Shown here piece after piece: positions 4,181 through 39,663 of a DNA stretch of 64,000 nucleotides (position 1 is its first letter; every line of letters begins with the position of its first letter). This stretch comes from a virus (taxonomy: Duplodnaviria; Heunggongvirae; Uroviricota; Caudoviricetes). The DNA lies in the IMG/VR virus record IMGVR_UViG_3300032007_000013, one strand, 5' to 3'. A program made the translations under genes and the position numbers. The notes beneath the pieces are model-generated. The model did not search any database. It was not told where the DNA came from and saw only the letters and a program-made list of their open reading frames with translations.

Positions 4181-5335
4181 ATGACAATTTCTATTGTTGT
4201 AGTTGGAATTGTTTGTCTTTTACTTGGTTTCTTGATAAGCACATTCATAAAAACTACAAAAATCAAAGAGAAAAACCAAGAGATTGAAAGAGAAGAAAAT
4301 TAGGCTTAGTTACGTATTAAAGATTTAGAGAAAGAATATATCCAAAAACAAGCTGAATTAGATAAATAGTATAATGAAACTATAAATCAATATAAAGCCG
4401 ATTATGAAGAACAAAATTTACGTTTAGAAGAGGCGGCAAATACTGCTTTATCTCAAATAAATTCTGAAAAATAGGCTTGGGAGCAAGAAAAAACAAAAAA
4501 AATTTTAACTTGGGCCCAGCATGAATCTGATTTAAAATCAGAAGTATCGAGTTTGGAACGTTAGATTACTGATAAAAAAAGATTCATTGATGATTTAGAT
4601 GAATAGGCAAAAACTGCTGTAAAATTAGTTGAAGAACAAGTTATTGATAATATGACTAATACAGTAGAGTAGCAAAGTAAAGAATTATATTCAACTTATG
4701 AAAAATTAGAAAGTGAATTAAAAGTACATTATACTGATTTAGCTGATGAATTATATGAGAAATTCCAAGAACATGATGAAAAATTAAGTAATTTAATTCT
4801 TACAAAAGAAAATGAATTAAATGAATTATAGGCAAAAGCAAAAGCTGCTATTGAGACTAATAAACGAATGGAATTAGAAAAATAGCAAAAAGATTTTTAC
4901 AGATTACAACTTTCTGATATAGATTTAGAAGAAATAAAACATATTAGATCTATTGAACATTATTTAAGAAAAAAAGAACCTTTAAATAAAGTTATTTGGA
5001 AAGTATATTATGAAAAGCCGTGTACAGATTTAATAGGTCGTGTTGTTGGATAGGGGAGAAAAACTGGTATTTATAAAATTACTAATATAGATAATGGAAT
5101 GTGCTATATAGGACAAGCGGTAGATATTGCTGAACGATGGAAATAGCATATTAAACGAGGTATAGGGGCAGACCCTCCTACGCAAAATAAATTATATCCT
5201 GCTATGTTATCTATTGGTGTAGAAAATTTTACATTTGAAGTAATTGAAGAATGTGCTGGAAATCTTTTAAATGATAGAGAAGATTATTGGCAAGAATTTT
5301 ATCAAGCAAAGGAATTTGGGTATAGTATAAAATGA
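4181..5335 (+). CDS. Membrane-anchored coiled-coil protein with C-terminal GIY-YIG nuclease domain (384 aa)
   Basis: Hydrophobic N-terminus MTISIVVVGIVCLLLGFLISTFI; long E/K/Q-rich helical region; GIYKITN...CYIGQAVDIAERWKQH...LNDREDYW. Continuous only with TAG=Q. Confidence 0.8.
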
Positions 5336-8324: not shown

Positions 8325-9005
8325 ATGGCGACAGTAACCTGTAAATATTGTGGTAAAAAATTTGATAGAGAAAAAGAACCATATGTATAGATTCCATATG
8401 GGCAAAAAGCATTTAGATATGGACATAGTTAGTGTTATTTAAATGCTGTAAACTCTCAAAAAGAAACAGCAAAATATGAAATTTTTGATCCTAAATAGTT
8501 TAAAAATTGTTTTTGGTGTTCATAGGCTATTCTACCAACAGCAGTAGACGTGATAGAGTTACCAAATATGTTTGGACGATATGCTCATAAAAAGTGTGCT
8601 GAGGTTCATCCATCAGATGATAGAGAAAAATTTAAAGTTTATATAATACAATTGTATAAATGTAAAGATGACCATGGATGGCCACGACTTATGTAGCAAG
8701 CAGAAAAAATAGCTAAAAATTATAATTTTACATATTCTGGTATGATGAAAGCCTTAGAGTATTTTCATAAAGTAAAATAGCATCCGGTAGATACTTCAAA
8801 AGGAATAGGTATTATCCCATATGTTTATAAAGATGCTTATAATTATTATTATAGTATATGGTTATCTTAGGAATAGAATAAAAATAAAAAAATAGAAGAT
8901 TATGTGCCAAAAGATATAGTGGTAGTAATACCTCCACCGTAGAAATCACCGCAAAAGCGTAAATTATTTACATTTTTAGAGGAGGATAATGTTGATGCCG
9001 AGTAA
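8325..9005 (+). CDS. Zn-binding protein upstream of DnaB, possible helicase loader/accessory (226 aa)
   Basis: CKYC...H..C and CFWC...HKKC motifs; about eight TAG=Q; overlaps the dnaB start. Confidence 0.65.
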
Positions 9006-10524
9006 ATTTGTTGACACAACTTCTATTGTTCAAGTTATTGGATGTATTTATAAAACTCCATAGCTTTTGGATTATGAAGATAAATATACTATAACAGAAG
9101 AAGATTTTCCTGATTAGTTTCATAAAATTGTTTTTGGAACAATATATAATTTATATAATTTAGGTTCTGAAAAAATAACTTTAAGTAGTATTTTGGACTA
9201 TTTATCAAGTCGTCCAAAAAGTGAAGCAATTTTTATTAAACAAAAAGGAGAAGAATGGTTAATACGAGCAGAAGAAAATGCTCAACCATCTTCATTTGAT
9301 TATTATTATAATCGAATGAAAAAAATGTCATTATTAAGAGCATATGATAATTATGGAGTAGACGTAACAGATTTTTACGATCCAGATAATATTATAGACT
9401 CTAAAAAAAGACAATTATAGGAAGATTAGTTAGATAATTCAACATTAGAACAAATAGCCCAAAGAGTATAGGATAAAATAGATTAGATTCGTTCTCAATA
9501 TGTTGATGATGAATGGGGTGAAGCCTCATAGGCCGGCGATGGTATTTTTGAATTACTTGAAGAGTTAAAGCAAAGACCAGATGTTGGCGTTCCACTTTAT
9601 GGGCCATTAATTAATACAGTAACACGCGGAGCCAGATTAAAGAAATTTTATTTAAGAAGTGCAGCTACTGGTATTGGAAAAACTCGTAGTATGATTGCTG
9701 ATTGTTGTTATATTGGATGTAATAGAATTTATGATGACGTATTTGGTTGGATTAAAAATGGTACATCAGAGCCTTGTTTATATATAGCGACAGAGCAAGA
9801 ATTAGCAGAAGTCCAGACAATGATGTTAGCATTTATTTCCAATGTTAATGAAGAACATATTATGAATGGACGCTATGAAGGTGATGAAGAAGAACGAGTT
9901 TTACAAGCAGCTTCAATTATTAAAGATAGTCCAATTTATGTTGAAGTATTACCTGATTTTTCATTATAGGATGTTGAAGATAAGATAAAAAAGAATATAA
10001 GAGATCATGATGTAAAATATGTTTTCCATGATTATATTCATACAAGTTTAAAAATATTAGAAGAAATTACAAAGCGTTCTGGTGGAGTTAAATTAAGAGA
10101 AGATAATATCTTATTTATGTTATCTACTAGATTAAAAGATATTTGTAATAAATATGGTATTTTTATTATGTCAGCGACTCAGCTAAATGGTGATTATCAA
10201 AATAGTGAAACTCCTGACCAAAATTTACTTCGTGGAGCAAAAGCTATTGCTGATAAAATTGACTGGGGTGGTATTTTATTAGCAACTACAAAAGAAGATT
10301 TAGAAAATCTTGATTAGATTTTAATTAATAATAATTTTGATAAACCTAATATTAAATTGTCTATCTATAAAAATAGACGAGGAAGATATAAAGGTATTTA
10401 TTTATGGTGTAAAGCAGATTTAGGGACTTGTAGAATATAGCCTATGTTTGCTACTACATATACCTATGAAATAGTACAAATTGATAATTTAAAAATTATG
10501 ACAACAGAGCCAAGTGCTTTTTAA
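8995..10524 (+). CDS. dnaB: DnaB-like replicative helicase (509 aa)
   Basis: SAATGIGKT Walker A, IATEQ, VFHDYIH, SATQLNG, LRGAKAIADKID, KNRRG; continuous with TAG=Q. Confidence 0.92.
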
Positions 10525-10749: not shown

Positions 10750-11840
10750 AAACCTATAATAAAAAAGAAGTCCGTGAGAAGCTCGGTATTGAACAAATAC
10801 ACGAGCTTCTTGTTGAATGGGGCGGAGAACCAGAATATTCTAGTTTTGGGCTAATAGCGGCTACTATATGTCATAATCCGCCAGGAGAAGGAAGTCGTAA
10901 ATTATATTATTACAGTAATACAGATTTGTTCTAGTGTTATACTGGATGCGGCAGTTTTGATATTTTTCAATTAGTAGTAAAAGTAGCTAAAATCCAATGG
11001 GGTAAAGAATATGATTTAAATGATGCTGTTCGATATATTGCTATTAGATTTGGTCTTGCTGGAGAAGTAGAGATTGAAGATGATAGTCTTATTGACTGGA
11101 AAGCATTTAATAATTATGATAGATTAGAAAATATAGATATAAAAGATTATCATACTACTTTAAAAGAATATGATACTAATATCTTAAAAAATTTAAATTA
11201 TAATGTGATAATTGAGCCTTGGTTAAAAGAAGGTATCACTGAATCAGTTATGAAAAGAGCGAATATAGGATATTTCCCGCCAACAGCTCAAATTACAATC
11301 CCACATTATGATATAGATGGACGTTTTATTGGACTTCGAGGACGCTTTTTATGTCAACCAGATATTGATATGTATGGAAAATATAGACCGATGATGATTG
11401 GTAAAAAATAGTTTAATCATCCTCTTGGTATGAATTTATACAATTTAAATAATTGTAAAGATAATATTAGAAAAATTAAAAAAGCTATTATTTTTGAAGG
11501 TGAAAAATCTGCTTTAAAATATATTTCTTATTTTGGAGAAGAAAATGATATAGCAGTTGCTTGTTGTGGTTCTAATATTTCTGCTTATCAAATGTAGTTA
11601 TTATTAGATTGTGGAGTAAAAGAAATCGCAATTGCTTTTGATAGACAATTTCAAGCTATTGATGATGAAGAATTTAAACACTTAACAAATAATTTAACTA
11701 AAATTAATGAAAGATATAAAAATTATGTAGATATATCTTTTGTTTTTGATAAGAAAATGATTACTGGATATAAAGATGCTCCAATTGATAAAGGACCGGA
11801 GGTTTTTATGGAGTTATGGAAAAAAAGAATAAAATTATAA
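10746..11840 (+). CDS. dnaG: DNA primase (Zn finger + TOPRIM) (364 aa)
   Basis: ICHN...QCYTGC zinc domain, TIPHYD..G..IG.RGR, IIFEGEKS, IAFDRQ TOPRIM motifs. Confidence 0.88.
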
Positions 11841-15240: not shown

Positions 15241-15286
15241 CAATTTATTGTTGGCTAAAATTTTTGGACATATCTAACAATTTTAA

Positions 15287-15323
15287 TTTATAGTATTTTT
15301 ATATAATATGAAAATACTATAAA
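15287..15323 (+). promoter_or_regulatory. 13-bp hairpin abutting the RBS of the HNH gene
   Basis: TTTATAGTATTTT-N11-AAAATACTATAAA directly joined to AAAGGAGA. Confidence 0.65.
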
Positions 15324-15336
15324 GGAGATAATAAAA

Positions 15337-15837
15337 ATGATTAAATAGTGTGTAGTATGTGGGAAAGAGTTCGAGTGTAAAAGATCTACCGCAAAATATT
15401 GTTGTCGTCAATGCGAAAATCAAGCAAGAGCTAAAAGAATTAGAGAGAAACAATAGTTAAATGAAATTGATAAATATTGTTTAATTTGTGGTAAACCATT
15501 TCGTCCAAAATCTGGTGCTGCTAATCAAAGAACCTGCTGCTATGATTGTATGCCAGATGGAGTACAGTTAGGTAGAAGTGGATTTTTAGATTTATTACGA
15601 AAAGCACGAGGAGGACAATGTTAGCGATGTGGTTATAATAATTATTTAGGAGCATTAGATTTCCATCATATAAATCCAACAGAAAAAGATTTTACAATAG
15701 GAAATAGAGATTATAAATTAAAAGAATGTGTAGAAGAAACAAAAAAATGTGTGTTATTATGTTCCAATTGTCATCGTGAGATTCATGCTGGTCTATGGGA
15801 TATAAAAGAAATTTTAAATAAAAAGGAAAAAAAATAA
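15337..15837 (+). CDS. Free-standing HNH homing endonuclease with zinc-finger N-terminus (166 aa)
   Basis: CVVCGKEF..C...C and CLICGKPF repeats; CQRCGYNNYLGALDFHHINP...LLCSNCHREIH. Confidence 0.88.
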
Positions 15838-15840
15838 ATT

Positions 15841-17119
15841 ATGGAAAATATTACATTAACAAATAAACAAGAGGAGGCGTTAAAATTAGCAGTAGCCAGA
15901 TACCAACTAGGGATGCCCTATACGGTAATTTCTGGCTACGCTTAACGCAGGTAGCGGAAAATCAACTTTAGTTAAATTTATTATTTCTGCTTTAAATCTT
16001 CCTCCAGAAAAAGTAGCATATGTAGCGTATACAGGGAAGGCGGCTAATGTTTTAAAAAATAAAGGATGTCAAAATGCTACTACTGCTCATAAATTATTAT
16101 ATTATGCTACAAAAAATAAAGAAGGAAAATTTATTTTTAAGCCAAAAGAACGATTAGATGCTGATTATGAATTAATTGTAGTAGATGAAGTTTCTATGTT
16201 ACCTGAAGAATTGTGGTATTAGTTATTATCACATGGAATTTATGTATTAGCAATGGGAGATCCTGGATAGTTACCTCCAGTAAAATCTAATGCGGCTCCA
16301 ATACTTGAAAAACCACATATATTCCTTGATGAAATAATGCGACAAGCACAAGAAAGTGCTATTATTCGTTTATCTATGCATATTCGAGAAGGAAAAGATT
16401 TCGCTTCATTCCCGATTGTCAGTGGAGAAGTTCGTATTATTCCTCATAGATATTTATTTAATGATGAAGATATAACTCTCCTACAAGCATCACAAGTAAT
16501 TTGTGGAACAAATAAAGAGCGTAATAGACTTAATAATCGTATTCGATTTTTACAAGGCCGAAGTGAAGTTCCAGAAGTTGGTGATAAATTAATAGGGCTT
16601 GATAATCATTGGGATTGTATCAGCGTGGCCGGTAATGCCTTAACTAATGGTGCTATTGGAACAACTCCTGGTTATATTTTAAAAGAATAGACTTATAATA
16701 AAAATAATATTAAATTTAAAGATTTTCCAGATTCTACTACATTAATGTGGACTAAATTTTATACAGAAGATGGAGATAATTTTGAAACAGAAATTCCTAT
16801 TGATTATAATTGTTTAATAACAGGAGATCCGTCATTAGATTCTAAACAAGAAGCAACATTATCTATTTATCAAAAGAATTTAATTAGTAGAAGTATGAAA
16901 AATTTAAGTTTTGATCCATTTCTTTATTGGAAAGAAATTCCATATCATTTTAATTATGGTTATGCTATTACTTGTTGGAAAGCATAGGGTAGCGAGTATC
17001 CTTATGTATTAGGGTATGACTGTAGTTGGTTAAAGAAAAAAGATCCTGAACAATATAAAAAATATATGTATACTCTTTGCACCCGCGCTTCAGAAGCCGT
17101 AATTTTAGTAGGAGATTAA
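15841..17119 (+). CDS. Dda/RecD-like SF1B helicase with a 7-nt insertion in Walker A
   Basis: MENITLTNKQ...ISGYA[TAACGCA]GSGKST; AYTGKAA, VVDEVSM, GDPGQLPPV, YGYAITCWKAQGSEY, YTLCTRAS. Confidence 0.88.
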
Positions 17120-17492: not shown

Positions 17493-17555
17493 ACATAGAG
17501 ATTATAATAATATAAGAAAAAAATTTTTGGACGAATACTATTATAATCTCTATGT
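17493..17555. repeat. Perfect 17-bp inverted repeat upstream of the endonuclease gene
   Basis: ACATAGAGATTATAATA ... TATTATAATCTCTATGT; the spacer contains AAATTTTTGGAC. Confidence 0.8.
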
Positions 17556-17591
17556 GATTTTTCAAATCTTTATGAAGGAGTGAATAATATA

Positions 17592-18503
17592 ATGAAAATG
17601 ATAGATTTAACTAATTAGAGATTTGGAAAATTATTAGTATTAGAAAGAGATTATAATTATCCACATAAAGGAACATATTGGAAATGTAAATGTGATTGTG
17701 GTAATTATATTACTGTTAGAAAAGATTAGTTAACTAAAACAAATCCAAAAACCAGTTGTGGTTGTGATTTAAGTGAAAAAAATTCAAAGGCTCATTTAAA
17801 AAATGAAGTAGGGAATAAATATGGATACTTAACTGTTTTAAAACGAGTACCAGATTTACGGAAAGGAGAAGCAAGATGGTTATGTCAATGTGATTGTGGC
17901 AATACTTGTGAGGTATCTGGATTACATTTACGGAATGGTACAGTCTAGTCTTGTGGATGTAAGAAATTTGAAAGTAAAAATAGTATTGAAGAAATACCTG
18001 GTACTAAATATGGAAATTTAACAGTTATGTATAAAAGTAATTTTAAAAAAAATGGCAAAATATATTGGCATTGTAAATGTGATTGCGGCAATGAGTGTGA
18101 TGTTTTAGGAACATATTTAAGAAATGGAATTAGTTCTCATTGCGGATGTAAAAAAAGTGCTGGTGAAATAAAAATTATGAAACTATTAGTAGATGCTAAT
18201 ATAAGTTTTAAAAGAGAATATACCTTCCCTGATTTAATAGGTGATGGTGGAAATAGATTAAGATTTGATTTTGGAATTTTTGATGATAATGATAATTTAT
18301 CTTATTTAATTGAATATAATGGAAAACAACATTATGATTAGGAGTGTTTTGATTAGACTAATGAATAGTTTACATTATTACAAAAATATGATAAAATGAA
18401 AAAAGAATATTGTAAATAGAGAAATATTCCATTAATTATTTTAGATTATACTCAATTAACTAAAATAACATTAAAAGATTTAATCTATAAAGAGGGTGAT
18501 TAA
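17592..18503 (+). CDS. Free-standing homing-type endonuclease: three CxCDCG...CGC repeats + PD-(D/E)XK/Vsr-like domain (303 aa)
   Basis: RFGKLLV..WKCKCDCG..SCGC repeated three times; C-terminal LRFDF...IEYNGKQHY...DKMKKEYC..RNIPLI. Confidence 0.82.
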
Positions 18504-21500
18504 TATAAATACTCAGATTTCGACTTATTTTGATTGTCATGCTCACACTGAGTATTCTTAAATTTAATATAAGATTAATTGACTGTATCAATCATCCAAA
18601 AGACTTAATTAATAGAGCGATTGAAATAGGGCTTAGTGGATGTAGTATAACTGACCACGAGGCTCTATGTTCGCATATGATTGTTAATAAGTATGCTAAG
18701 GAAATAAAAGAAAAATATCCTGACTTTACAATCGCATTAGGTAATGAAATTTATCTTACAGATACGAGAGATAAAGGACAAAAATATTATCACTTTATTT
18801 TATTGGCAAAGGATAGATTAGGATATAAAGGTCTTTGTGAATTAAGTTCAACTGCTTGGTATAATGTTTATGTTGATAGACGACTTGAAAGAGTACCAAC
18901 ATTAAAAAATGAACTTAAAGAAATTATGAAAAAATATAAAGGTCATATAATTGCGACAACTGCTTGTATGGGCGGCGAATTATCTACAAATTTATATGGC
19001 TTAGCATTAGCAAGAAAAAATCAAGATAAAACAATGGAAATGGCATACTATAATAGTGCTGTTGAATTTATAAATTTTTGTATTGACGTTTTTGGAAAAG
19101 AAGATTTTTATATTGAGTGTGCCCCAAGTACAAAGCCAGATTAGGTAATTGTAAATAAACAATTATTAAATGTTGCTCATGCATTTGAATTAAAAATGGT
19201 TGTAGGGACAGATGCTCATTATCTCAAAAAAGAAGATAGATATGTTCATAAATCATATTTGAATTCAAAGCAAGAAGAACGTGAAGTTGATGATTTTTAT
19301 GAATATGCTTATATGCAATCACCAGAAGAGGTAAGAGAACATTTAAGTGCCTCAATGAGCGATAGAGATATTGATTGGATATTTGAAAATTCATTAGAAG
19401 TCAAAAATAAAATAGATTTTTATAGTCTTGAAAAACATCAGCATATTCCAGAAGTAAGAGTAAAAGAATACAGTAAAGATTGTTGGAAATATATCCATAT
19501 TAACTTTAATGAATATCCAATTTTAAAACAATTATTTATAAGTGATAATGTTCAAGAACGATATTGGGTTAATGAATGTATTGATGCTCTAATTTTAAAA
19601 GGATTAATAGATGATAAAAGATATTTAGATAGACTTGAAGAGGAAGCACGAGTAAAAAGAGTCATTGGAGAAAAACTTGAAACTTGTATGTTCGCATATC
19701 CAAATACTCTTCAACATTATATTGATTTGTTTTGGCGATGTGGCAGTACAGTTGGAGCAGGTCGTGGCTCAGCATGTTCGGGTCTAAACCATTATCTTTT
19801 AGGAGTAACTCAACTAGATCCAATTAAGTGGAATTTACCATTCTGGCGTTATCTTAATGATGAACGTGTTGAATTAGGTGATATTGACTTAGACCTAGCT
19901 CCAAGTAAACTTCCAAAAATTTTTGAAGAAATTCGCAAAGAACGTGGGGAATTAGGTATTGTTCAAGTTTGTACTTTTGGTACAGAAGCAACTAAATCTG
20001 CGGTTTTAACTGCGTGCCGTGGTTATAGAAGTGAAGAATACCCAGATGGTATCGACGTTGATGATGCTCAGTATATTTCATCATTAGTACCACAAGAGCG
20101 TGGATTTTTGTGGGATTTACATGATATGATTGAAGGTAACCCTGATAAAGGCAGATTACCGCAAAGACAATTTATTAATACAGTAAATCAATATCCAGGT
20201 CTTTTGGATATTATGAAAGGTATTGAAGGACTAGTATCTCGTCGAGGAATTCATGCCTCTGGTGTTATTTTATTTGATGAAGATATATTTAGTGAAGCAG
20301 CTATTATGCGAGCGAGGAATGGAAATTTAACGACTCAATGGGACTTACATGACCAAGAATCTGCTGGTAGTGTTAAGTATGACTTTCTTTTAACCGCAGT
20401 TCAAGATATTATTATTGAAACAATAGATTTACTTCAAGCAGATGAAGTAATAGATCCAACTTTATCTTTAAGACAAGTATATAATAAATATTTACACCCA
20501 AATGTAATTCCGCAAGATGATCCAAAAATATGGGACGCATTAGCAAAAGGTAGTGTGTTAGGAGTATTTTAGTTTGAAGGTTCTGTTGGAGCACAGGCGG
20601 CTAAAAAAATTAAACCATAGAATCCGTTGGAAATGGCTGATGCAAATGGATTAATGCGACTTATGGCAAGTGAACCAGGGGCAGAAATGCCACTTGATAA
20701 ATATGTTCGTTATAAAAATGATATTAATCAGTGGTATATGGAAATGGACAGATGTGGATTAACAAAAGAAGAGCAAAAAGCAATTGAACCACATTTTAAA
20801 TCTTCATATGGTGTCCCACCAAGTCAAGAGCAGTTAATGCGAATGTTAATGGATGAAAATATTTGTGGTTTTACATTGGCAGAAGCAAATGCGGCTCGTA
20901 AAATTGTTGGTAAAAAACAAATGTCTAAAATTCCCGGATTAAAAGAAAAAGTATTAACATCTGCGAAATCTCCAAAATTAGGTGCTTATATTTGGAAATA
21001 TGGGGCCGGCCCGCAGATGGGTTATTCATTCTCGATTATTCATGCCTTGGCTTATTCATTTATTGGTATGCAAACCTTATATCTTGGAGTTTATTATCCA
21101 GTATATTGGAATACCGCATATTTAATTGTTAATAGTGGAGCATTAGGCGGTGATGAAGATGATGATGGAGATAAACAAGATGGGACAGATTATAAAAAAA
21201 TCGCAAAAGCAATTGGACAAATTAGAGCGGCTGGCATTCAAGTAAGTTTAGCAGACATTAATCGTTCTGAATTTGGATTTGTCCCAGACCCAGAAAATAA
21301 TCAAATTCTTTTTGGGATGAAAGGTATGTTAAATGTTGGTGATGATATTATTGAAGAAATTATTTCACATCGACCTTACGTATCTCCAAGAGATTTTATT
21401 AATAAAGTAAAACCAAATAAACAAGTTATGATTTCTTTAATTAAAGGTGGAGCTTTTGATAACTTAATGGATCGAAAAGAATGTATGGCTTGGTATTTAT

Positions 21501-22417
21501 GGGAAAATTGTGATAGGAAAAAAAGAATTACTTTATAGAATATGGCTGGATTAATGAAGTATCAATTAGTTCCAGAAGATACTGATGAAAGAATAATGGC
21601 TCGTAGGGTATATGAATTTAATAGATATTTAAAAGCTATTACAATTCCTGCTAATAAATTAAAACCATATTATGTATTAGACGAACGAGCATTAGCATTT
21701 TTATTAAATACTGGAAAAGAAGAATTAATTTGTCAAAATGGTGATTGGTACTGTTTATTAAAGGCTGATTGGGATAAAATCTACCAAACATAGATGGATG
21801 TATTTCGTAAATGGATTGCAGAAAATCATGATTAGATATTAGCTACTTTAAATAAACTAATATTTATGGATGAATGGAATAAGTATGCGAAAGGAACTAT
21901 TTCTGCTTGGGAAATGGAAGCTTTATGTTTTTATTATCATGACCATGAATTAGCAAATATTAATAATTCAAGATATGGTTTTGTAGATTTTAATAAATTG
22001 CCAACTGAACCTGAAATAGATAGAACATTTACAAAAGGTGGTCGCACAATTAATTTATATAAATTGTATAAAATATGCGGGACTTGTATAGCAAAAAATA
22101 AAAATAAAAGCACCGTAACTTTATTAACAACTACTGGTGTAGTAGATGTTAAATTTAAAAAAGAATATTTTGCTTTATTTGATAAACGTATTTCTGCTAA
22201 AGGTGAAGATGGGAAAAAACATATTATTGAAAAGTCTTGGTTTGATCGTGGAAGTATGATTATCGTATAGGGCATTAGATTAGATGATATGTTTGTATCA
22301 AAAAAATATGCTTCTTCTGGCGGGCATCAATTATATAAAATTGATGAAGTAGTCGATGATGAAATTAAAATCAGAACTACTCGTGCCCAAGGTGATGAAG
22401 AAGATGACGATGATTAA
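18496..22417 (+). CDS. dnaE: DNA polymerase III alpha subunit (DnaE) with a 7-nt insertion after the PHP HxH motif (~1300 aa)
   Basis: YFDCHAHTEYS[TAAATTT]NIRLIDC; ITDHE, GTDAHY, GAGRGSA, DIDLD, GIHASG, KYDFL, GVFQFE, YSFSIIHALAYS. Start is GTG 18496 or a nearby ATT/ATA behind GAGGGTG. Confidence 0.93.
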
Positions 22418-35265: not shown

Positions 35266-35294
35266 TATATTATAATAAAGAAAGGTGAAGTTTT

Positions 35295-35819
35295 TTGAAT
35301 ATCGAAGAAATTAAACAAATTTTAAATGCTTATGATAGTACTATTTAGCAAGAAGCTTCAGAAGGATTTAAAACTTTCTATGATATAGAAAATGTATTAA
35401 TATTTATTTTAGATGAATTAGATGATATTGAACATAAAATATCTAATAAAATTATTAAATTAAATGATTATAATTATTTTATTTGCAACGATGAGCGTGG
35501 AGTAGAAGAATTTGATGAAAATTATTTAGTAAAATTTTTATATCAAAATTTTATAAAAGGATAGAATATTATTCTTTATGATGCATTATATAAAACTTAT
35601 TATTATATTAATAGTGTTTATAAAGAAAAAGATGATTATATTATGAATTCATTTTGTGTCCGTTTAGTTTATTATGATAATAAATATAATCAAATGATAA
35701 CTTTTTTTTCATTACGTTATAATGAAAAAGATGATAAAACTTATAAATATACTTATAATATAAATTTACCTATGTTAATAGAAAGAATTAAAAAAGAAAA
35801 AAACGATGAAACCATTTGA
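35295..35819 (+). CDS. Hypothetical protein in the rSAM cluster (174 aa, TTG start)
   Basis: AAGGTGA RBS; open with TAG=Q. Confidence 0.6.
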
Positions 35820-36636: not shown

Positions 36637-36642
36637 TAAAAT

Positions 36643-36692
36643 AAAAAAAAAGACTTTAATAATATTTAAATATTATTAAAGTCTTTTTTTTT
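36643..36692. terminator. Bidirectional terminator (perfect 50-nt palindrome) between convergent modules
   Basis: AAAAAAAAAGACTTTAATAATATTT|AAATATTATTAAAGTCTTTTTTTTT. Confidence 0.85.
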
Positions 36693-39663
36693 ATTTTATT
36701 TTAATCCAAATTCTATTATTTACTTCAACATTATCTGTTCCCCATACCTTATACTAAGGAATTTCACTAACAATACCAATAATACAATCTGGATATTCTT
36801 TGATTTCTTCTCTTGTCATAATATCAACTGTTCCATCTGGAGCAGAGCATACTGCCATTCCAGCATGATAATTATTTTTATCCTAATAAGTATAAACTAA
36901 TACTCGTCCAGCCACTGCTAATGGAGTTTTACATTTTTCTGTATATCCCATTGAATGACCAAAAGTATCAGAAATGACCTAAGCCCCTGACTATAAACGT
37001 TTTGAAGCACAAGATAAAGAACCATCATCATTATCAATCACAACTCGACCTGGCTCTAAATTAATAGTAGTTCTGTATTCAGCATAATCATTAAAAACAG
37101 CATTAAATACTCTTGCTCCATAAACATTTTTAGTAAAATAAGCTCCTCCTTTAGAATATAAAGAGGAGTCTGTAGTAGGAATAACTCCATCGGTAATTCC
37201 ACTAGTATTATTAATAGTTAATTTTCCAGTAATTGTAGCAGTTCCACCAACAGATAAATTACTATTAGTTCCACTTAATGTAAAACTACCAGTTAAAGTA
37301 TTGCTCCAACCTGGTTTTCCATTTTTGGTATTTCCACCACGCCAAAATTGAGCAGTAGTGCCACCATTAGTGACCTCATATAGTGGATCTGCACTAATCT
37401 CATTTCCATTTATATATAAAGTATTAAAATATCCTTTATCGGCACTTACATAACTATTGGCTGGGCCGCCTTTGTTTCCTTCTTCTATGGTGTTATATTC
37501 CATAATATAAGCATGATCAATATATTTATCACTATCTCCTAAATTAACAGCATGCACAAAATTCCAACGATAATTTTTTGTTCCTAAATTCCCAGTCCCA
37601 TCGGCAAAAGGACGAACATTACTCGCCCCAGCTTCTTCATTACCAAATATCGCTGCTTTAGCATATAAAATGTTCCACTATTTAGTAGAAGACCCTAAAT
37701 TTTTTCCGACAGTACCATTAGCATTTGGGTCTGGGATCATATGATTAATAATATTACTCTTTGGATTAAAAGTTCCATTAACAACAACATTTCCATCTAA
37801 GGTAATAGCCTATAAAGTAGTTTCATTTTTAGCAGTAATGGTAGTATTTCCTTCACTTGTGATTCCTATTGTGCTACTAGTAGATATATTAATAGGTTGG
37901 TTACTTTTATTATCGAAACCCTTTATTGGTATTTCATATAATTTACCATTAATCTATATTCTAAAAGTACCAGATTTCTAATCCTCTTTAGGGGCTGTAG
38001 GCTATGTAGCATTATCATTGGCAGTCATTGTTTTAATAAAGAAAGTATGGTTTTCTCCATTATCATCAATATTATAATCAAAATTATCGGACCATTTAAT
38101 ATTATTACCAAGTTTTACATATTTATATCCATAAAGAACATTTGCTCCAGCCTAATTTAAAATTTCGGCTTCCATAGCTTTAATAGCATCTTCAATTGCT
38201 GTTATTTCTTCTCCTAAATCCTTTATTCTATTTCCAATAGAATTATAATCAGCTTTTAAACGTTCCAAATTTTTAGCAATAATACCATCTTCTGGATTTC
38301 CTATAGTATTAATAATATTTTCAAAGCCATCATAAAAAATAGTTTTCATAGTATAAAAATCAGGAGATGATTCTTCGTCCCATTTCCATAATTCATCTTC
38401 TTGTATTAACTATTGAATAATGGCGCGCAAACCCTAAACATTAACAGGAGTAGAATATTTAACTTCTTGATTATTATCATCAAGACCAGTATAAGATAAA
38501 TTCATCCATTCCTAAGTGCTATGAAGATTTCTAATTCTATCAATTTGTTCCTAAGAAAAACCAATAGTAGCTAATTCTTGTAAAAAAGTTAAATAATTAT
38601 AAGCAATAATAAAATCAGCAAAACTAGCAATAAACTGTTGTTCATCAATACTAAAAATATTTACTAATGTATTATTCTAATTTATAGTACTATTTTTTAA
38701 ATTAGTTAACTCAGAATATAAATGAATTCTATCATCAAATTTTAAATTTGTATAAATAAAAGATAGTTTTCCTTCATCATTTATACTTGCATACATCTTT
38801 TCATTATTACAAAGTGTAACCCATTCATCTGGAGTCGTATAAGTAAATCTCTAATATTCATTATTGTCATCTAAATAATAATAAATTTTATTTTCATCAT
38901 ATGATGCTCCAGAAGTAACTTTTTCAAATGAATCTAATTTTACATCTGTATAATATAAACTAATTTTAGATAATGTTAATGGAGATAAATTTCCGTATGA
39001 AACTCCATTATAAACATAAATTTCTCCTCTAGAAACTTTATTATCCCAATCTACGTCTCCATCAGTATAAATAGTATAAACGTTTTCATCATTAAGATAA
39101 TAATAAGTAACATTAGCATTATATTCAGTTCCTGGCTTTAAAGTTTCAAATTCATCTATAGGACCTAATGAATCAATTGTTGTATACCTATCAGAAAATG
39201 GAAAATTTAAAATAGACAAACCTGCTTTTAAAAATTCTTCTTTAGAATTTGCAATTTTATCCCAAATACTTTTTATTCTTTGGGCTTCTAATTCTTTATC
39301 TTCCTAAATCTCTTTATTCTAAGCAAATGCTGTAAGTACTTTCTGAGATATATATTCTGCATTATGTAATTCTATTTTTTTATTTCTTAATTCTTCTTTT
39401 TTTCGTTCAATTTCTTCTTGAAGTTCTTCAGCAAAAATAATATTTCCTTTTAAACTTCTATCATCGCCATAAGTAATTTTTAAACATGGTGTATCATCAG
39501 TATAAGCATGCCAAATTTTATTATCATGTAAAGCATCTTTTTTATTTTCATTTGATACATAATCAATATCTATAATTGGATAATTTTTTATTTGTGTTAA
39601 AAGATTCTAAAAAGCATCACGTTTTAAAACGATATTATCTTCATATCTCTTATCATAAATCAT
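36691..39663 (-). CDS. Tail fibre/spike protein with C-terminal intramolecular-chaperone-like domain (990 aa)
   Basis: Four track ORFs join in one frame with TAG=Q; NLG....W repeats; AVFNDYAEY...SDTFGHSMG...AVAGRV (peptidase G2-like autocleavage domain); GAAAGGAG RBS. Confidence 0.72.

Follow-up and report, generated by a model that had tools for sequence, protein, structure and literature searches.

How a phage could make an intact helicase from a gene whose Walker A coding sequence is interrupted by a stop codon and a change of frame is the question raised by this locus. In the window, i.e., the whole 64,000-nucleotide stretch of rumen phage DNA analysed, positions 15934-15961 read GGC TAC GCT TAA C GCA GGT AGC GGA AAA TCA. 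Frame 1 runs from the ATG at 15841 through ...PYTVISGYA into TAA (15943-15945), and frame 2 (AGSGKST...) is open to 17119 when TAG is read as Gln; all four internal stops of frame 2 are TAG and fall at conserved Gln positions, e.g., in GDPGQLPPV and KAQGSE. A first-pass annotation of this DNA had claimed a 7-nt insert starting with TAA in the Walker A motif at 15940-15952, whose removal gives GYAGSGKS and leaves the rest of the helicase intact in the other frame, with no usable downstream start. The sequence bears out each of these points; frame 2 has no usable start of its own because its first ATG/GTG/TTG, at 16196, lies beyond Walker A. The elements of the gene are as follows.

15841-15942, plus strand: helicase 5' segment in frame 1, from the ATG to the take-off codon, 34 codons, ending ...AVARYQLGMPYTVISGYA
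15940-15942, plus strand: putative take-off codon GCT (Ala of GYA), GCN in all relatives
15943-15949, plus strand: 7-nt coding gap TAACGCA, consisting of the stop TAA (15943-15945), a spacer C and the putative landing codon GCA (15947-15949)
15950-17119, plus strand: helicase body in frame 2, GSGKS ... VGD, with four TAG = Gln codons and the stop TAA at 17117-17119

The gene encodes an SF1 helicase of the Dda/RecD-like type (PHROG 325; Pfam AAA_30 and UvrD_C_2). Motifs I, II (DEVSM) and III (GDPxQLPPV) and the C-terminal KAQGSE are all found, motif I being whole only when the 7 nt are bypassed or shifted past. A DnaB-like helicase is also encoded in the window (8989-10524).

Support for the insert comes from contigs of other samples, for which neither depth nor uncovered parts are informative. 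Contigs from an independent study (X3) cover 15300-15947 and 15918-16155 without gaps, and a sheep-gut strain (X9) covers 15607-15979, also gap-free, with 19 substitutions, none of them listed inside the insert. A sequencing or assembly error, which would make the interruption an artefact, is refuted by these independent contigs and retains practically no probability: the insert is identical in the independent study, is kept in a diverged strain, and has homologs in dozens of contigs from many samples.

Conservation of the insert among related phages

Among 80 related phage helicase genes, 24 carry an insert of 5, 6, 7 or 8 nt at exactly this codon, always with TAA or TGA first. A wider scan added ~20 further insert variants, for a total of ~45 related phage contigs with gaps of 4-8 nt (at the loci beyond the first 24, the insert site alone was read). 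Of the conserved form expected by the first-pass annotation in orthologs (NCT-TAA-N-NCN), the stop-first insert at the same codon does recur, whereas its length (5-8 nt in the first set), its stop (TAA or TGA) and its end (GCN, GTN, ACN or TCC) vary. Throughout the unbiased set, insert-bearing loci have TAA or TGA directly 3' of the take-off codon; L211 has no stop, its gap opening with CGG, the rarest Arg codon, and it has its own hairpin.

The codon preceding the point of resumption resembles the take-off codon, the helicase genes pairing GCN with GCN, GUN, ACN or UCC. The two codons often differ at the third or first position, and differences at the middle position are C to U only, which would be tolerable because a G-U pair with the anticodon is kept. 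Part of this likeness could date back to a duplication at the junction of the insertion. One class of relatives has in-frame 6-nt gaps (TAAGCT, TAAGCA, TAAGTT, TGAGTT and TAAACT), which share clade and cassette with 5-nt gaps. The insert is scattered over the helicase tree, such that at least 7-11 changes are needed to explain its distribution, and all 55 insert-free genes have G-[YF]-A-G at the matching positions.

A non-functional scar left by the insertion of a cassette, in a helicase that is dead or dispensable, would fit the position of the insert at a recombination border (see below), and phages carry several helicases, here including the DnaB-like one. We consider this very improbable. 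The downstream frames (356-390 codons) are open in 24/24 insert-bearing relatives of the first set, with dN/dS of 0.02-0.27 between insert-bearing pairs, and in one such pair the stop has switched between TGA and TAA at a dS of 0.29 and a dN/dS of 0.019. Stop identity, hairpin and landing codon are kept across gap classes, and the same device is found in DnaE, the replicative polymerase. The null allele that the first-pass annotation listed as an alternative, and the prospect that the insert is unique to this genome and followed by a decaying frame, are both contradicted by the 24 relatives with full-length frames under such constraint. On these comparisons, we regard the helicase insert as a recoding site maintained by selection rather than a dead allele.

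Removal or alteration of the 7 nt in RNA before translation, by a micro-intron or by editing, would likewise restore the motif, and we found no direct support for it. The only RNA-library contig (X7, 151 nt) is identical to the window over 15808-15958 and keeps the 7-nt insert, which counts weakly against removal since the contig is possibly carried-over DNA. Variable gap lengths with a conserved stop suit a ribosomal event better, and we know of no bacterial or phage splicing of 4-8 nt, so that we give this explanation hardly any credence.

The upstream hairpin and the nuclease cassettes

All insert-bearing genes have a strong 5' RNA hairpin, missing from the insert-free genes, whose 3' arm terminates at the codon preceding the take-off Ala codon.

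15892-15939, plus strand: conserved 5' RNA hairpin, GTAGCCAGA (15892-15900) pairing with TCTGGCTAC (15931-15939), with inner stem TACC/GGTA

The window hairpin folds at -23.6 kcal/mol (z -4.75), and 0/200 shuffles were equally stable. In a 14-pair model, 12.8/14 positions are paired in 20 distinct insert-bearing sequences vs. 7.5/14 in 41 insert-free ones, mean folding energies being -18.8 and -8.5 kcal/mol respectively; 91% of cells are paired, vs. 20-52% when the partners are slid. Compensatory stems are seen in L015 (GTAGCCCGCTATA/TATAGCGGGCTAC), L071 (ATAGCC../..GGCTAT) and L202 (GTAACCAGA/TCTGGTTAC). Covariation within the insert-bearing set amounts to three compensatory pairs (9/500 shuffles scored as high), a modest signal because the outer stem is near-invariant among these sequences. 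Stem formation costs a conserved Glu, which becomes Ala (AVERY to AVARY); this peptide change overlaps the 5' arm, so that RNA effects are confounded with those of the nascent peptide, a signal needed for take-off in T4 gene 60. The first-pass annotation had proposed a different, local hairpin (GCTAC/GTAGC) with the TAA in its loop. Although that stem can fold in the window, its stability is low (-7.7 kcal/mol, z -1.25) and it is unconserved; a search of all insert-bearing relatives for a common stem-loop enclosing the stop gave scattered weak stems only. We take the hairpin relevant to decoding to be the conserved one abutting the take-off codon.

Upstream of the helicase gene is a free-standing nuclease gene, which together with the helicase 5' end forms a putative cassette.

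15253-15269, plus strand: left cassette border, GGCTA followed by the AAATTTTTGGAC motif
15337-15837, plus strand: free-standing HNH homing-type endonuclease gene, 166 aa, with three TAG = Gln codons

The product of the 15337-15837 ORF matches the PHROG 2255 HNH endonuclease (E 4e-24) and, weakly, Pfam HNH_2, and the ORF lies 103 nt upstream of the gap. Homologs of this gene, found by an alignment search (a single-sequence search gave 4 loci only), are located 91-113 nt upstream of the Walker A site at 21 loci, all of which bear the insert, and at 0/55 insert-free loci; a remnant of the gene is present in L043. Among the insert-bearing loci without the HNH gene, a Pfam search of the ORFs preceding the helicase gave a nuclease in L012 alone. 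When a phage collection was searched at the DNA level with this region, the HNH part alone was matched (in Lak, Yersinia and other phages), with no close relative of the helicase. The helicase insert is real, conserved and under selection, and is linked both to the hairpin and to the nuclease cassette.

The GGCTA at the left border looks like a remnant of the Gly-Tyr codon pair of an older helicase. A GGNTA|AAATTTTTGAC or similar junction is also present in L027, L028, L030 and L200, preceded in L027 and L028 by the truncated 5' end of an older helicase; such an old 5' end is retained upstream of the HNH gene in L201 and L202 as well. Sharp borders at the target are also seen between relatives: L043 and L045 are 70% identical over the 5' 90 nt and 99% over the next 300 nt, and the identity of L027 and L044 is 94% on one side of the border vs. 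60-65% on the other. Patchy spread on the tree combined with such mosaic flanks is as expected of intronless homing. These patterns indicate that the helicase 5' segment transfers horizontally as a module in the relatives, and that the 7 nt mark the 3' border of a mobile cassette of HNH endonuclease gene and replacement helicase 5' end, which would be the reason that the insert exists.

A second site with a similar arrangement was found in the DnaE (Pol III alpha) gene.

17580-18503, plus strand: second free-standing nuclease gene, 307 aa, directly upstream of DnaE (PHROGs 374, 559, 9084 and 7140)
18509-18565, plus strand: second putative recoding site in the DnaE PHP motif, with hairpin arms ATACTCAG (18509-18516) and CTGAGTAT (18548-18555)
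18556-18565, plus strand: take-off TCT (18556-18558), gap TAAATTT (18559-18565) and resumption at AAT (18566)
18566-22417, plus strand: DnaE body after the second gap

The second nuclease has several FGxLxVL...CxC modules and ends in a DUF2726-like part, and its four PHROGs are annotated as HNH, homing or intron-encoded nucleases. A homolog (34% identity, E 2e-42) is located upstream of the insert-bearing helicase of L012; counting against a strict link, homologs in L065 and L066 adjoin an uninterrupted DnaE 5' end. DnaE genes of insert-free relatives read ...EYS NIR LIDC in a single frame. Gaps occur at three DnaE codons, AAT[TAAC]CAT, CAT[TAAAT]ACT and TCT[TAAATTT]AAT, each with a stem of at least 8 bp ending at the take-off codon, and the corresponding take-off and landing codons are AAU and AAC, CAU and AAU, and UCU and UUU. 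Taken alone, the DnaE hairpin of the window is weak (-8.8 kcal/mol, z -1.3).

Across the window, which is AT-rich, a blind scan for stems that end ahead of a TAA or TGA had no discriminating power (128 and 94 matches vs. ~107 in shuffles), and an ORF-offset scan found no further split gene. The sole GC-rich coding-strand stem examined besides those of the helicase and DnaE sites, at 10814, is out of frame within an ORF, and the ORF at 35289-35819, which has no ATG for 118 codons, was rejected as a recoding site, as it follows a gap and a TTG. The window contains no tRNA genes, so no special tRNA can be linked to the site.

Decoding of the gap

The reading that best accounts for these data, and the one we think probable, is a short translational hop over the gap at the cassette border, which would shield the genome of the nuclease from being cut by its own product. 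The minimal stop-hop suggested by the first-pass annotation, with GCT as take-off codon, TAA as stop and GCA as landing codon, is likewise the best fit to the comparative data. From these comparisons we infer the hop, the pulling role of the hairpin and the protection from cutting. Besides the HNH homing-type endonuclease gene, the cassette would comprise a promoter-like motif and a new 5' end that replaces that of the Dda-like helicase gene. The HNH nuclease would cut competing phages within the part of their helicase genes that codes for the conserved Walker A motif, as suggested by the junctions at the GYA codons and by the linkage of the HNH gene to the insert, and the insert, by splitting this target, would leave the carrier genome uncut. 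During translation, the ribosome would hold GCU (Ala) in the P site with a slowly decoded UAA in the A site, while the 5' hairpin, whose 3' arm lies right behind the P-site codon, may re-zip as it leaves the ribosome and drag the mRNA forward. Peptidyl-tRNA(Ala) would then release GCU and re-pair at GCA 7 nt on, and decoding would restart at GGU to yield the normal motif GYAGSGKS. In T4 gene 60 bypassing, a 5' stem-loop acts as a motor pulling the mRNA, and forward shifts may be stimulated by structure on the 5' side (PMC5009743; 10.1101/2024.12.09.627546). Protection from self-cleavage by MobA comes from the gap in gene 60, and hungry codons have been reported for gaps of this type too (10.1101/2022.08.31.505936).

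Alternatively, the site could be decoded by a programmed +1 frameshift with no distant re-pairing, in which AAC GCA GGU are read to give GYA-NA-GSGKS, and other gap lengths are handled by -1 or +2 shifts or by readthrough. The resulting A-N-A-G-S-G-K-S fits the pattern [AG]xxxxGK[ST], minimal shifts would give a two-residue insertion x-[A/V/T/S] at every gap length, and the Ala, Val, Thr or Ser of the landing codon could be tolerated residues. 5' structures are reportedly able to stimulate +1 shifts (PMC5009743), and a classical +1 site, CUU UGA C, is present in DnaE of 9 relatives, with a 1-nt insert and no abutting hairpin, where +1 re-pairing is possible. We nevertheless rate a frameshift as unlikely at the helicase site. 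It requires four different mechanisms for one conserved signal, and the 6-nt gaps, being in frame, could not be decoded by any frameshift and would need readthrough of UAA or UGA, the two codons at which these genes ordinarily end. A +1 re-pairing is poor for GCU to CUU, UCU to CUU and AAU to AUU, yet a good match lies 4-8 nt on. Val, Thr and Ser would be unusual in the +1 product, given the invariant G-[YF]-A-G of the insert-free genes, and a +1 shift in DnaE would add K-F and leave the likeness of TTT to TCT unexplained.

A partial skip, in which the ribosome slides past the stop only (4 nt here) and a new aminoacyl-tRNA decodes the landing codon to give GYA-A-GSGKS, offers one rule for all gap lengths without P-site re-pairing, and the landing codons do specify small residues. 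Its product Y-A-A-G-S-G-K-S, however, loses the first Gly/Ala of the Walker A pattern, the C to U-only changes at the middle position go unexplained, and we know of no way in which the frame could be set without P-site pairing; we consider this distinctly improbable.

Returning to the hop with re-pairing, we lean slightly towards the more general proposal that the device is a portable module, in which a hairpin abutting any sense codon, a stop or very rare codon, and at most 8 further bases ending in a look-alike codon would suffice for bacterial ribosomes to slide and resume, and which unrelated homing nucleases (HNH and DUF2726-like) would use to disrupt their own targets within the best-conserved motifs of essential phage genes. 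If so, it would be the first family of short stop-hops known in nature and would show that zippering of the exiting mRNA alone can drive bypassing. Programmed bypassing in phages is known essentially from a single cassette, that of T4 gene 60. A 2022 preprint terms that cassette unique (10.1101/2022.08.31.505936), and our literature search found no description of such cassettes of a nuclease with a short gap. A second, apparently unrelated and far simpler family would provide a minimal system for ribosome release and sliding. Its natural variants, which number in the dozens, differ in hairpin, stop codon, gap length and landing codon. It also suggests how selfish nucleases may, as a general strategy, settle in the best-conserved motifs of essential genes and yet leave those genes working. 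Helicase and polymerase genes of this kind will look broken to gene callers, which affects phage annotations and pseudogene counts.

Comparison with known systems

The closest parallel drawn here is with T4 gene 60 and MobA (Manning and Atkins, 10.1101/2022.08.31.505936; Wills et al., 10.1101/2024.12.09.627546; PMC5009743). In both, a homing-type endonuclease cassette occupies a conserved motif of an essential DNA-metabolism gene, the endonuclease gene is physically linked to a non-coding gap, a stop or hungry codon directly follows the take-off codon, take-off and landing codons are similar, and a 5' stem-loop lies upstream of the take-off. The gap also outlasts the nuclease gene in both, insertions are patchy and recent, and other nuclease families can substitute. 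The two differ in that the gene 60 gap is 50 nt, compared with 7 nt here and 4-8 nt in relatives, too short for an internal Shine-Dalgarno element; the matched codons are Gly GGA there and Ala GCN (GCT/GCA) here; and the hairpin has a 9-nt spacer there and abuts the take-off codon here. Unlike gene 60, this site has no conserved stop-containing (A-site) stem-loop. The host genes are a topoisomerase large subunit in T4 and, here, a Dda-like helicase (Walker A) and DnaE (PHP motif), and instead of splitting the gene product into two proteins, the present cassette supplies a replacement 5' end. An informal look at the helicase and gene 60 cassettes revealed no likeness between them.

The synthetic stop-hops of Weiss et al. 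(1987) in E. coli occurred at low levels in artificial constructs that lacked stimulators, and a 2016 review knew of no natural in-frame stop-hop (both as described in PMC5009743). There, as proposed here, the peptidyl-tRNA re-pairs at a matching codon a few bases past a stop, and the 6-nt class GCT TAA GCT has exactly this layout; the natural sites differ in having a dedicated hairpin, and essential genes would rely on the event. In the programmed +1 frameshift of prfB (RF2), CUU UGA C is combined with an upstream Shine-Dalgarno helix. It shares with our site a slow step at an A-site stop codon and a helix just behind the P site that would favor forward motion, and the CTT TGA C of the 9 DnaE relatives is the only place in our set where P-site re-pairing of this kind fits. 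At the helicase site, by contrast, GCU to CUU gives no tRNA(Ala) match, the TTTCTGGCTAC preceding the take-off codon forms the 3' arm of the mRNA hairpin and not a purine-rich Shine-Dalgarno sequence, the pairing is within the mRNA rather than between mRNA and rRNA, and a 7-nt shift is needed.

The terminase gene of Streptomyces phage phiHau3 is a candidate for short bypass, with a proposed 5' stem-loop, a rare UUA hungry codon and a proposed regulatory role (PMC10732093). The likeness lies in the short distance, the phage gene, the 5' stem-loop stimulator and the slow A-site codon; phiHau3 differs in its UUA hungry codon, the absence of a homing endonuclease cassette, and its unrelated genes and hosts. 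The seg and mob homing endonucleases of T-even phages resemble our cassettes in other respects, i.e., an intergenic nuclease beside a conserved target gene, co-conversion of flanks, patchiness and decay of the nuclease. Immunity to these T-even free-standing enzymes usually comes from substitutions, whereas here it would apparently come from a frame-breaking insert that is compensated by translation.

Interrupted helicase gene and its relatives

The window, an AT-rich piece of phage DNA (28% G+C), occurs in runs from cattle and sheep gut metagenomes and reads TAG as glutamine: in the helicase frame, each of the four internal stops is a TAG at a conserved Gln position (e.g., GDPGQLPPV and KAQGSE). 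With this code, the plus strand up to ~36.6 kb encodes a replication module of DnaB-like helicase, RecJ-like nuclease, Dda-like helicase, DnaE, and NrdD. Exactly at the junction of the plus-strand and minus-strand gene blocks (36637-36698), a 29-bp inverted repeat without mismatches flanks a 4-nt loop and is probably a two-way terminator. Separately, a 177-codon open frame at 35289-35819 has no ATG in its first 118 codons (TTG at 35295); because no overlapping frame precedes it, it probably starts unusually and does not mark a site of recoding. The features discussed here, all on the plus strand, are:

15337-15837: HNH nuclease gene, ending 4 nt upstream of the helicase ATG
15841-17119: interrupted Dda/RecD-like helicase gene
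15892-15900 and 15931-15939: arms of the upstream hairpin
15943-15949: 7-nt insert
17580-18503: second free-standing nuclease gene
18495-18566: recoding site in the PHP motif of DnaE, directly behind the second nuclease gene

The helicase gene runs from ATG 15841 through ...PYTVISGYA to a TAA at 15943, and AGSGKST with the remainder of the 390-residue protein follows in a second frame to 17119; the junction (15934-15961) reads GGC TAC GCT TAA C GCA GGT AGC GGA AAA TCA. The TAA-starting insert in Walker A described in the first-pass annotation is thus borne out, as is the lack of a usable downstream start, since the second frame has no ATG, GTG, or TTG upstream of 16196, where the first occurs. 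Contigs of another study span the site gap-free, and the insert is retained in a strain from sheep gut that differs by 19 substitutions over 373 nt, which excludes an assembly error. A contig from an RNA library, which may itself be DNA, also carries it.

A helicase search of IMG/VR yielded 80 loci. Besides the window, 24 of these have the frame broken at the same place, directly 3' of the Ala codon of G-Y-A, and the insert starts with TAA or TGA without exception. The expectation of a conserved NCT-TAA-N-NCN insert in related phages therefore held for its position, whereas its length varies from 5 to 8 nt and TGA also occurs. Scanning for the pattern and searching via the nuclease brought in ~20 further variants.

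Inserts in the helicase genes (number of loci) and in DnaE of relatives
Helicase, 5 nt: TAACT, TAACC, TGACC, TGACT (16)
Helicase, 6 nt: TAAGCT, TAAGCA, TAAGTT (3)
Helicase, 7 nt: TAACGCA, TAACGCC, TAAAGCA, TAAGGCA (5, including the window)
Helicase, 8 nt: TAAGAGTA (1)
DnaE: AAT[TAAC]CAT; stem ATGAAGAT/GTCTTCAT
DnaE: CAT[TAAAT]ACT; 10-bp stem
DnaE: CTT[T]GAC, giving CUU UGA C; no abutting stem (9)

The downstream frames of insert-bearing loci are all full length (356-390 codons), and dN/dS between insert-bearing pairs is 0.02-0.27; even a TGA and a TAA variant (L044 and L047) show dN/dS of 0.019 at dS of 0.29. Together with the recurrence of the inserts, these sequence comparisons indicate that the insert-bearing helicases are expressed genes dependent on a recoding event. 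One helicase behind an HNH homologue (L211:3106-3130) contains a 5-nt insert without a stop, CGGTG. Its gap starts with CGG, the least used Arg codon (60 of 29,691 codons), and a separate hairpin of -18 kcal/mol accompanies it; here a hungry codon takes the place of the stop in what is otherwise the same device.

Association with mobile nucleases

HNH homologues lie directly upstream of the insert-bearing helicase in L027, L028, and L030, with a remnant in L043, and none precedes the helicase in the 55 insert-free loci. An alignment-based search found full-length homologues in 21 loci (3 on contigs already seen), and each is followed 91-113 nt downstream by an insert-bearing Walker A. The helicase tree requires at least 7-11 gains or losses of the insert, with L027 and L028 nested among nearly identical insert-free genes. 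Identity changes abruptly at the insert: L043 and L045 share 70% over the 5' 90 nt and 99% over the next 300 nt, and L027 and L044 drop from 94% to 60-65%. Old helicase 5' ends are also retained. In L027/L028, a truncated ORF (...CIAG*) comes first, then AAATTTTTGAC, and after the HNH gene a new 5' end that starts independently; the old copy extends through GYA in L201/L202; window positions 15253-15269 have GGCTA, which looks like such a remnant, directly followed by AAATTTTTGGAC; and in L012 the first nine codons of the old copy precede a gene homologous to the second nuclease of the window. Linkage, identity jumps, and retained ends all identify the insert as the right-hand edge of a mobile cassette entering at the GYA/G codons. 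The nuclease would cleave at this site, and the insert would render its carrier immune. That the site is under selection for recoding and linked to a mobile nuclease cassette is well supported and very likely; the original observation is confirmed.

For the second nuclease family, a homologue lies between helicase and DnaE in L065 (4070-4942) and L066, where the DnaE 5' end is uninterrupted (at least 720 codons), so either the nuclease-insert link is not absolute in this family or the target is elsewhere.

Over 160-185 nt, part of the HNH gene (15609-15823) is ~74% identical in DNA to HNH genes in Prevotella Lak megaphages and Yersinia phage fHe-Yen9-04, an unusually close match between phages so distant and one consistent with a widely travelling nuclease gene. 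Inverted repeats precede both nuclease genes, at 15273-15310 (11-bp stem, TATAGTATTTT/AAAATACTATA) and at 17499-17551 (13-bp stem, AGAGATTATAATA/TATTATAATCTCT, enclosing the AAATTTTTGGAC motif), and may be cassette promoter or regulatory structures.

Upstream hairpin and DnaE sites

GGCTAY precedes the Ala codon in every insert-bearing gene but one, which has GGTTAC; all of them encode A-R-Y, versus E/Q/S/K/N/D-R-Y in insert-free genes, and an RNA hairpin explains both features. In the window, GTAGCCAGA pairs with TCTGGCTAC, with an inner TACC/GGTA stem (-23.6 kcal/mol, z -4.75; 0 of 200 shuffles as stable), and the codon preceding the take-off codon GCT forms the exact end of the 3' arm. The hairpin initially proposed around the TAA is instead weak (z -1.25) and is not conserved in relatives. 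Folding energies of the 63 nt upstream lie between -15 and -27 kcal/mol in every insert-bearing locus and between -1 and -17 in insert-free ones, and 12.8 versus 7.5 positions of a 14-pair model are paired. Within the insert-bearing set, 91% of cells are paired (20-52% in slid controls), and stems of different letters occur (a perfect 13-bp stem in L015, ATAGCC/GGCTAT in L071, GTAACCAGA/TCTGGTTAC in L202). As the outer stem is nearly constant, covariation in this set is modest (three compensatory pairs); stronger arguments come from the comparison with insert-free genes and from the independent DnaE sites.

The window's DnaE reads ...HAHTEYS (TCT at 18556-18558), TAA A TTT, then AAT ATA AGA, where insert-free relatives encode EYS-NIR-LIDC in a single frame; L001 and L002 carry both window inserts. 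Its stem, ATACTCAG (18509-18516) with CTGAGTAT (18548-18555), ends at the take-off codon and is weak alone (z -1.3). Other DnaE inserts of relatives fall within the same 12 codons. The 1-nt class (L013 at 4215-4235, L016, L019, L020, L021, L023, L026, L027, and L035) forms CUU UGA C, the classical RF2 (prfB) +1 frameshift heptamer; a homologue of the second nuclease lies upstream in L016, with remnants in L020, L023, and L026. Since stems of at least 8 bp ending exactly before a stop-flanked codon accompany only ~2-3% of stops in this DNA, a stem at 4 of 4 multi-base-gap sites is unlikely by chance.

Decoding mechanism and known systems

At all sites the codon just before resumption resembles the take-off codon (GCN to GCN, GUN, ACN, or UCC; UCU to UUU; CAU to AAU; AAU to AAC). 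Middle positions change only from C to U, keeping a G-U pair with the anticodon, and mismatches at the first position mostly involve the stop codon's A in the shortest gaps. If the +1 codon allows re-pairing (CUU to UUU), one base is inserted and there is no hairpin; if it does not, a look-alike codon stands 4-8 nt further along, together with a hairpin. If each gap length were instead read by the smallest frame change, a uniform two-residue insertion compatible with [AG]xxxxGK[ST] would result, which makes this reading the main rival, but four mechanisms would be needed, and the in-frame 6-nt gaps are not decodable by any frameshift. As these adjoin 5-nt gaps within one cassette lineage, gap length can change without disabling the mechanism. 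If the peptidyl-tRNA slides a short way and then re-pairs, this one mechanism would serve all gap classes and restore the canonical motif in each. The hairpin may re-zip behind the ribosome and pull the mRNA, as modelled for the gene 60 5' stem-loop (PMC5009743; 10.1101/2024.12.09.627546), and we suggest that the hop of 4-8 nt reflects the spacer needed between helix and P site. Gap classes, landing-codon likeness, and hairpin agree in favouring the stop-hop from GCT to GCA advanced at first reading, and a 7-nt hop driven by the upstream hairpin is, judging from sequence, the best and a reasonably probable mechanism.

In the literature searched, we found no description of gaps that are this short, begin with a stop, and have a hairpin abutting them; a candidate short bypass in Streptomyces phage phiHau3 comes nearest (PMC10732093). 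In the T4 MobA element, the gap prevents self-cleavage and outlasts the nuclease (10.1101/2022.08.31.505936). The helicase element similarly combines a nuclease cassette with a coding gap, and by analogy the gap may be protective here. An informal comparison showed no likeness to the gene 60 cassette itself. The element would work like the gene 60/MobA cassette but differs in gap length, codons, target gene, and stop-holding stem-loop, and, lacking these defining features, therefore represents a new family within a known type of element.
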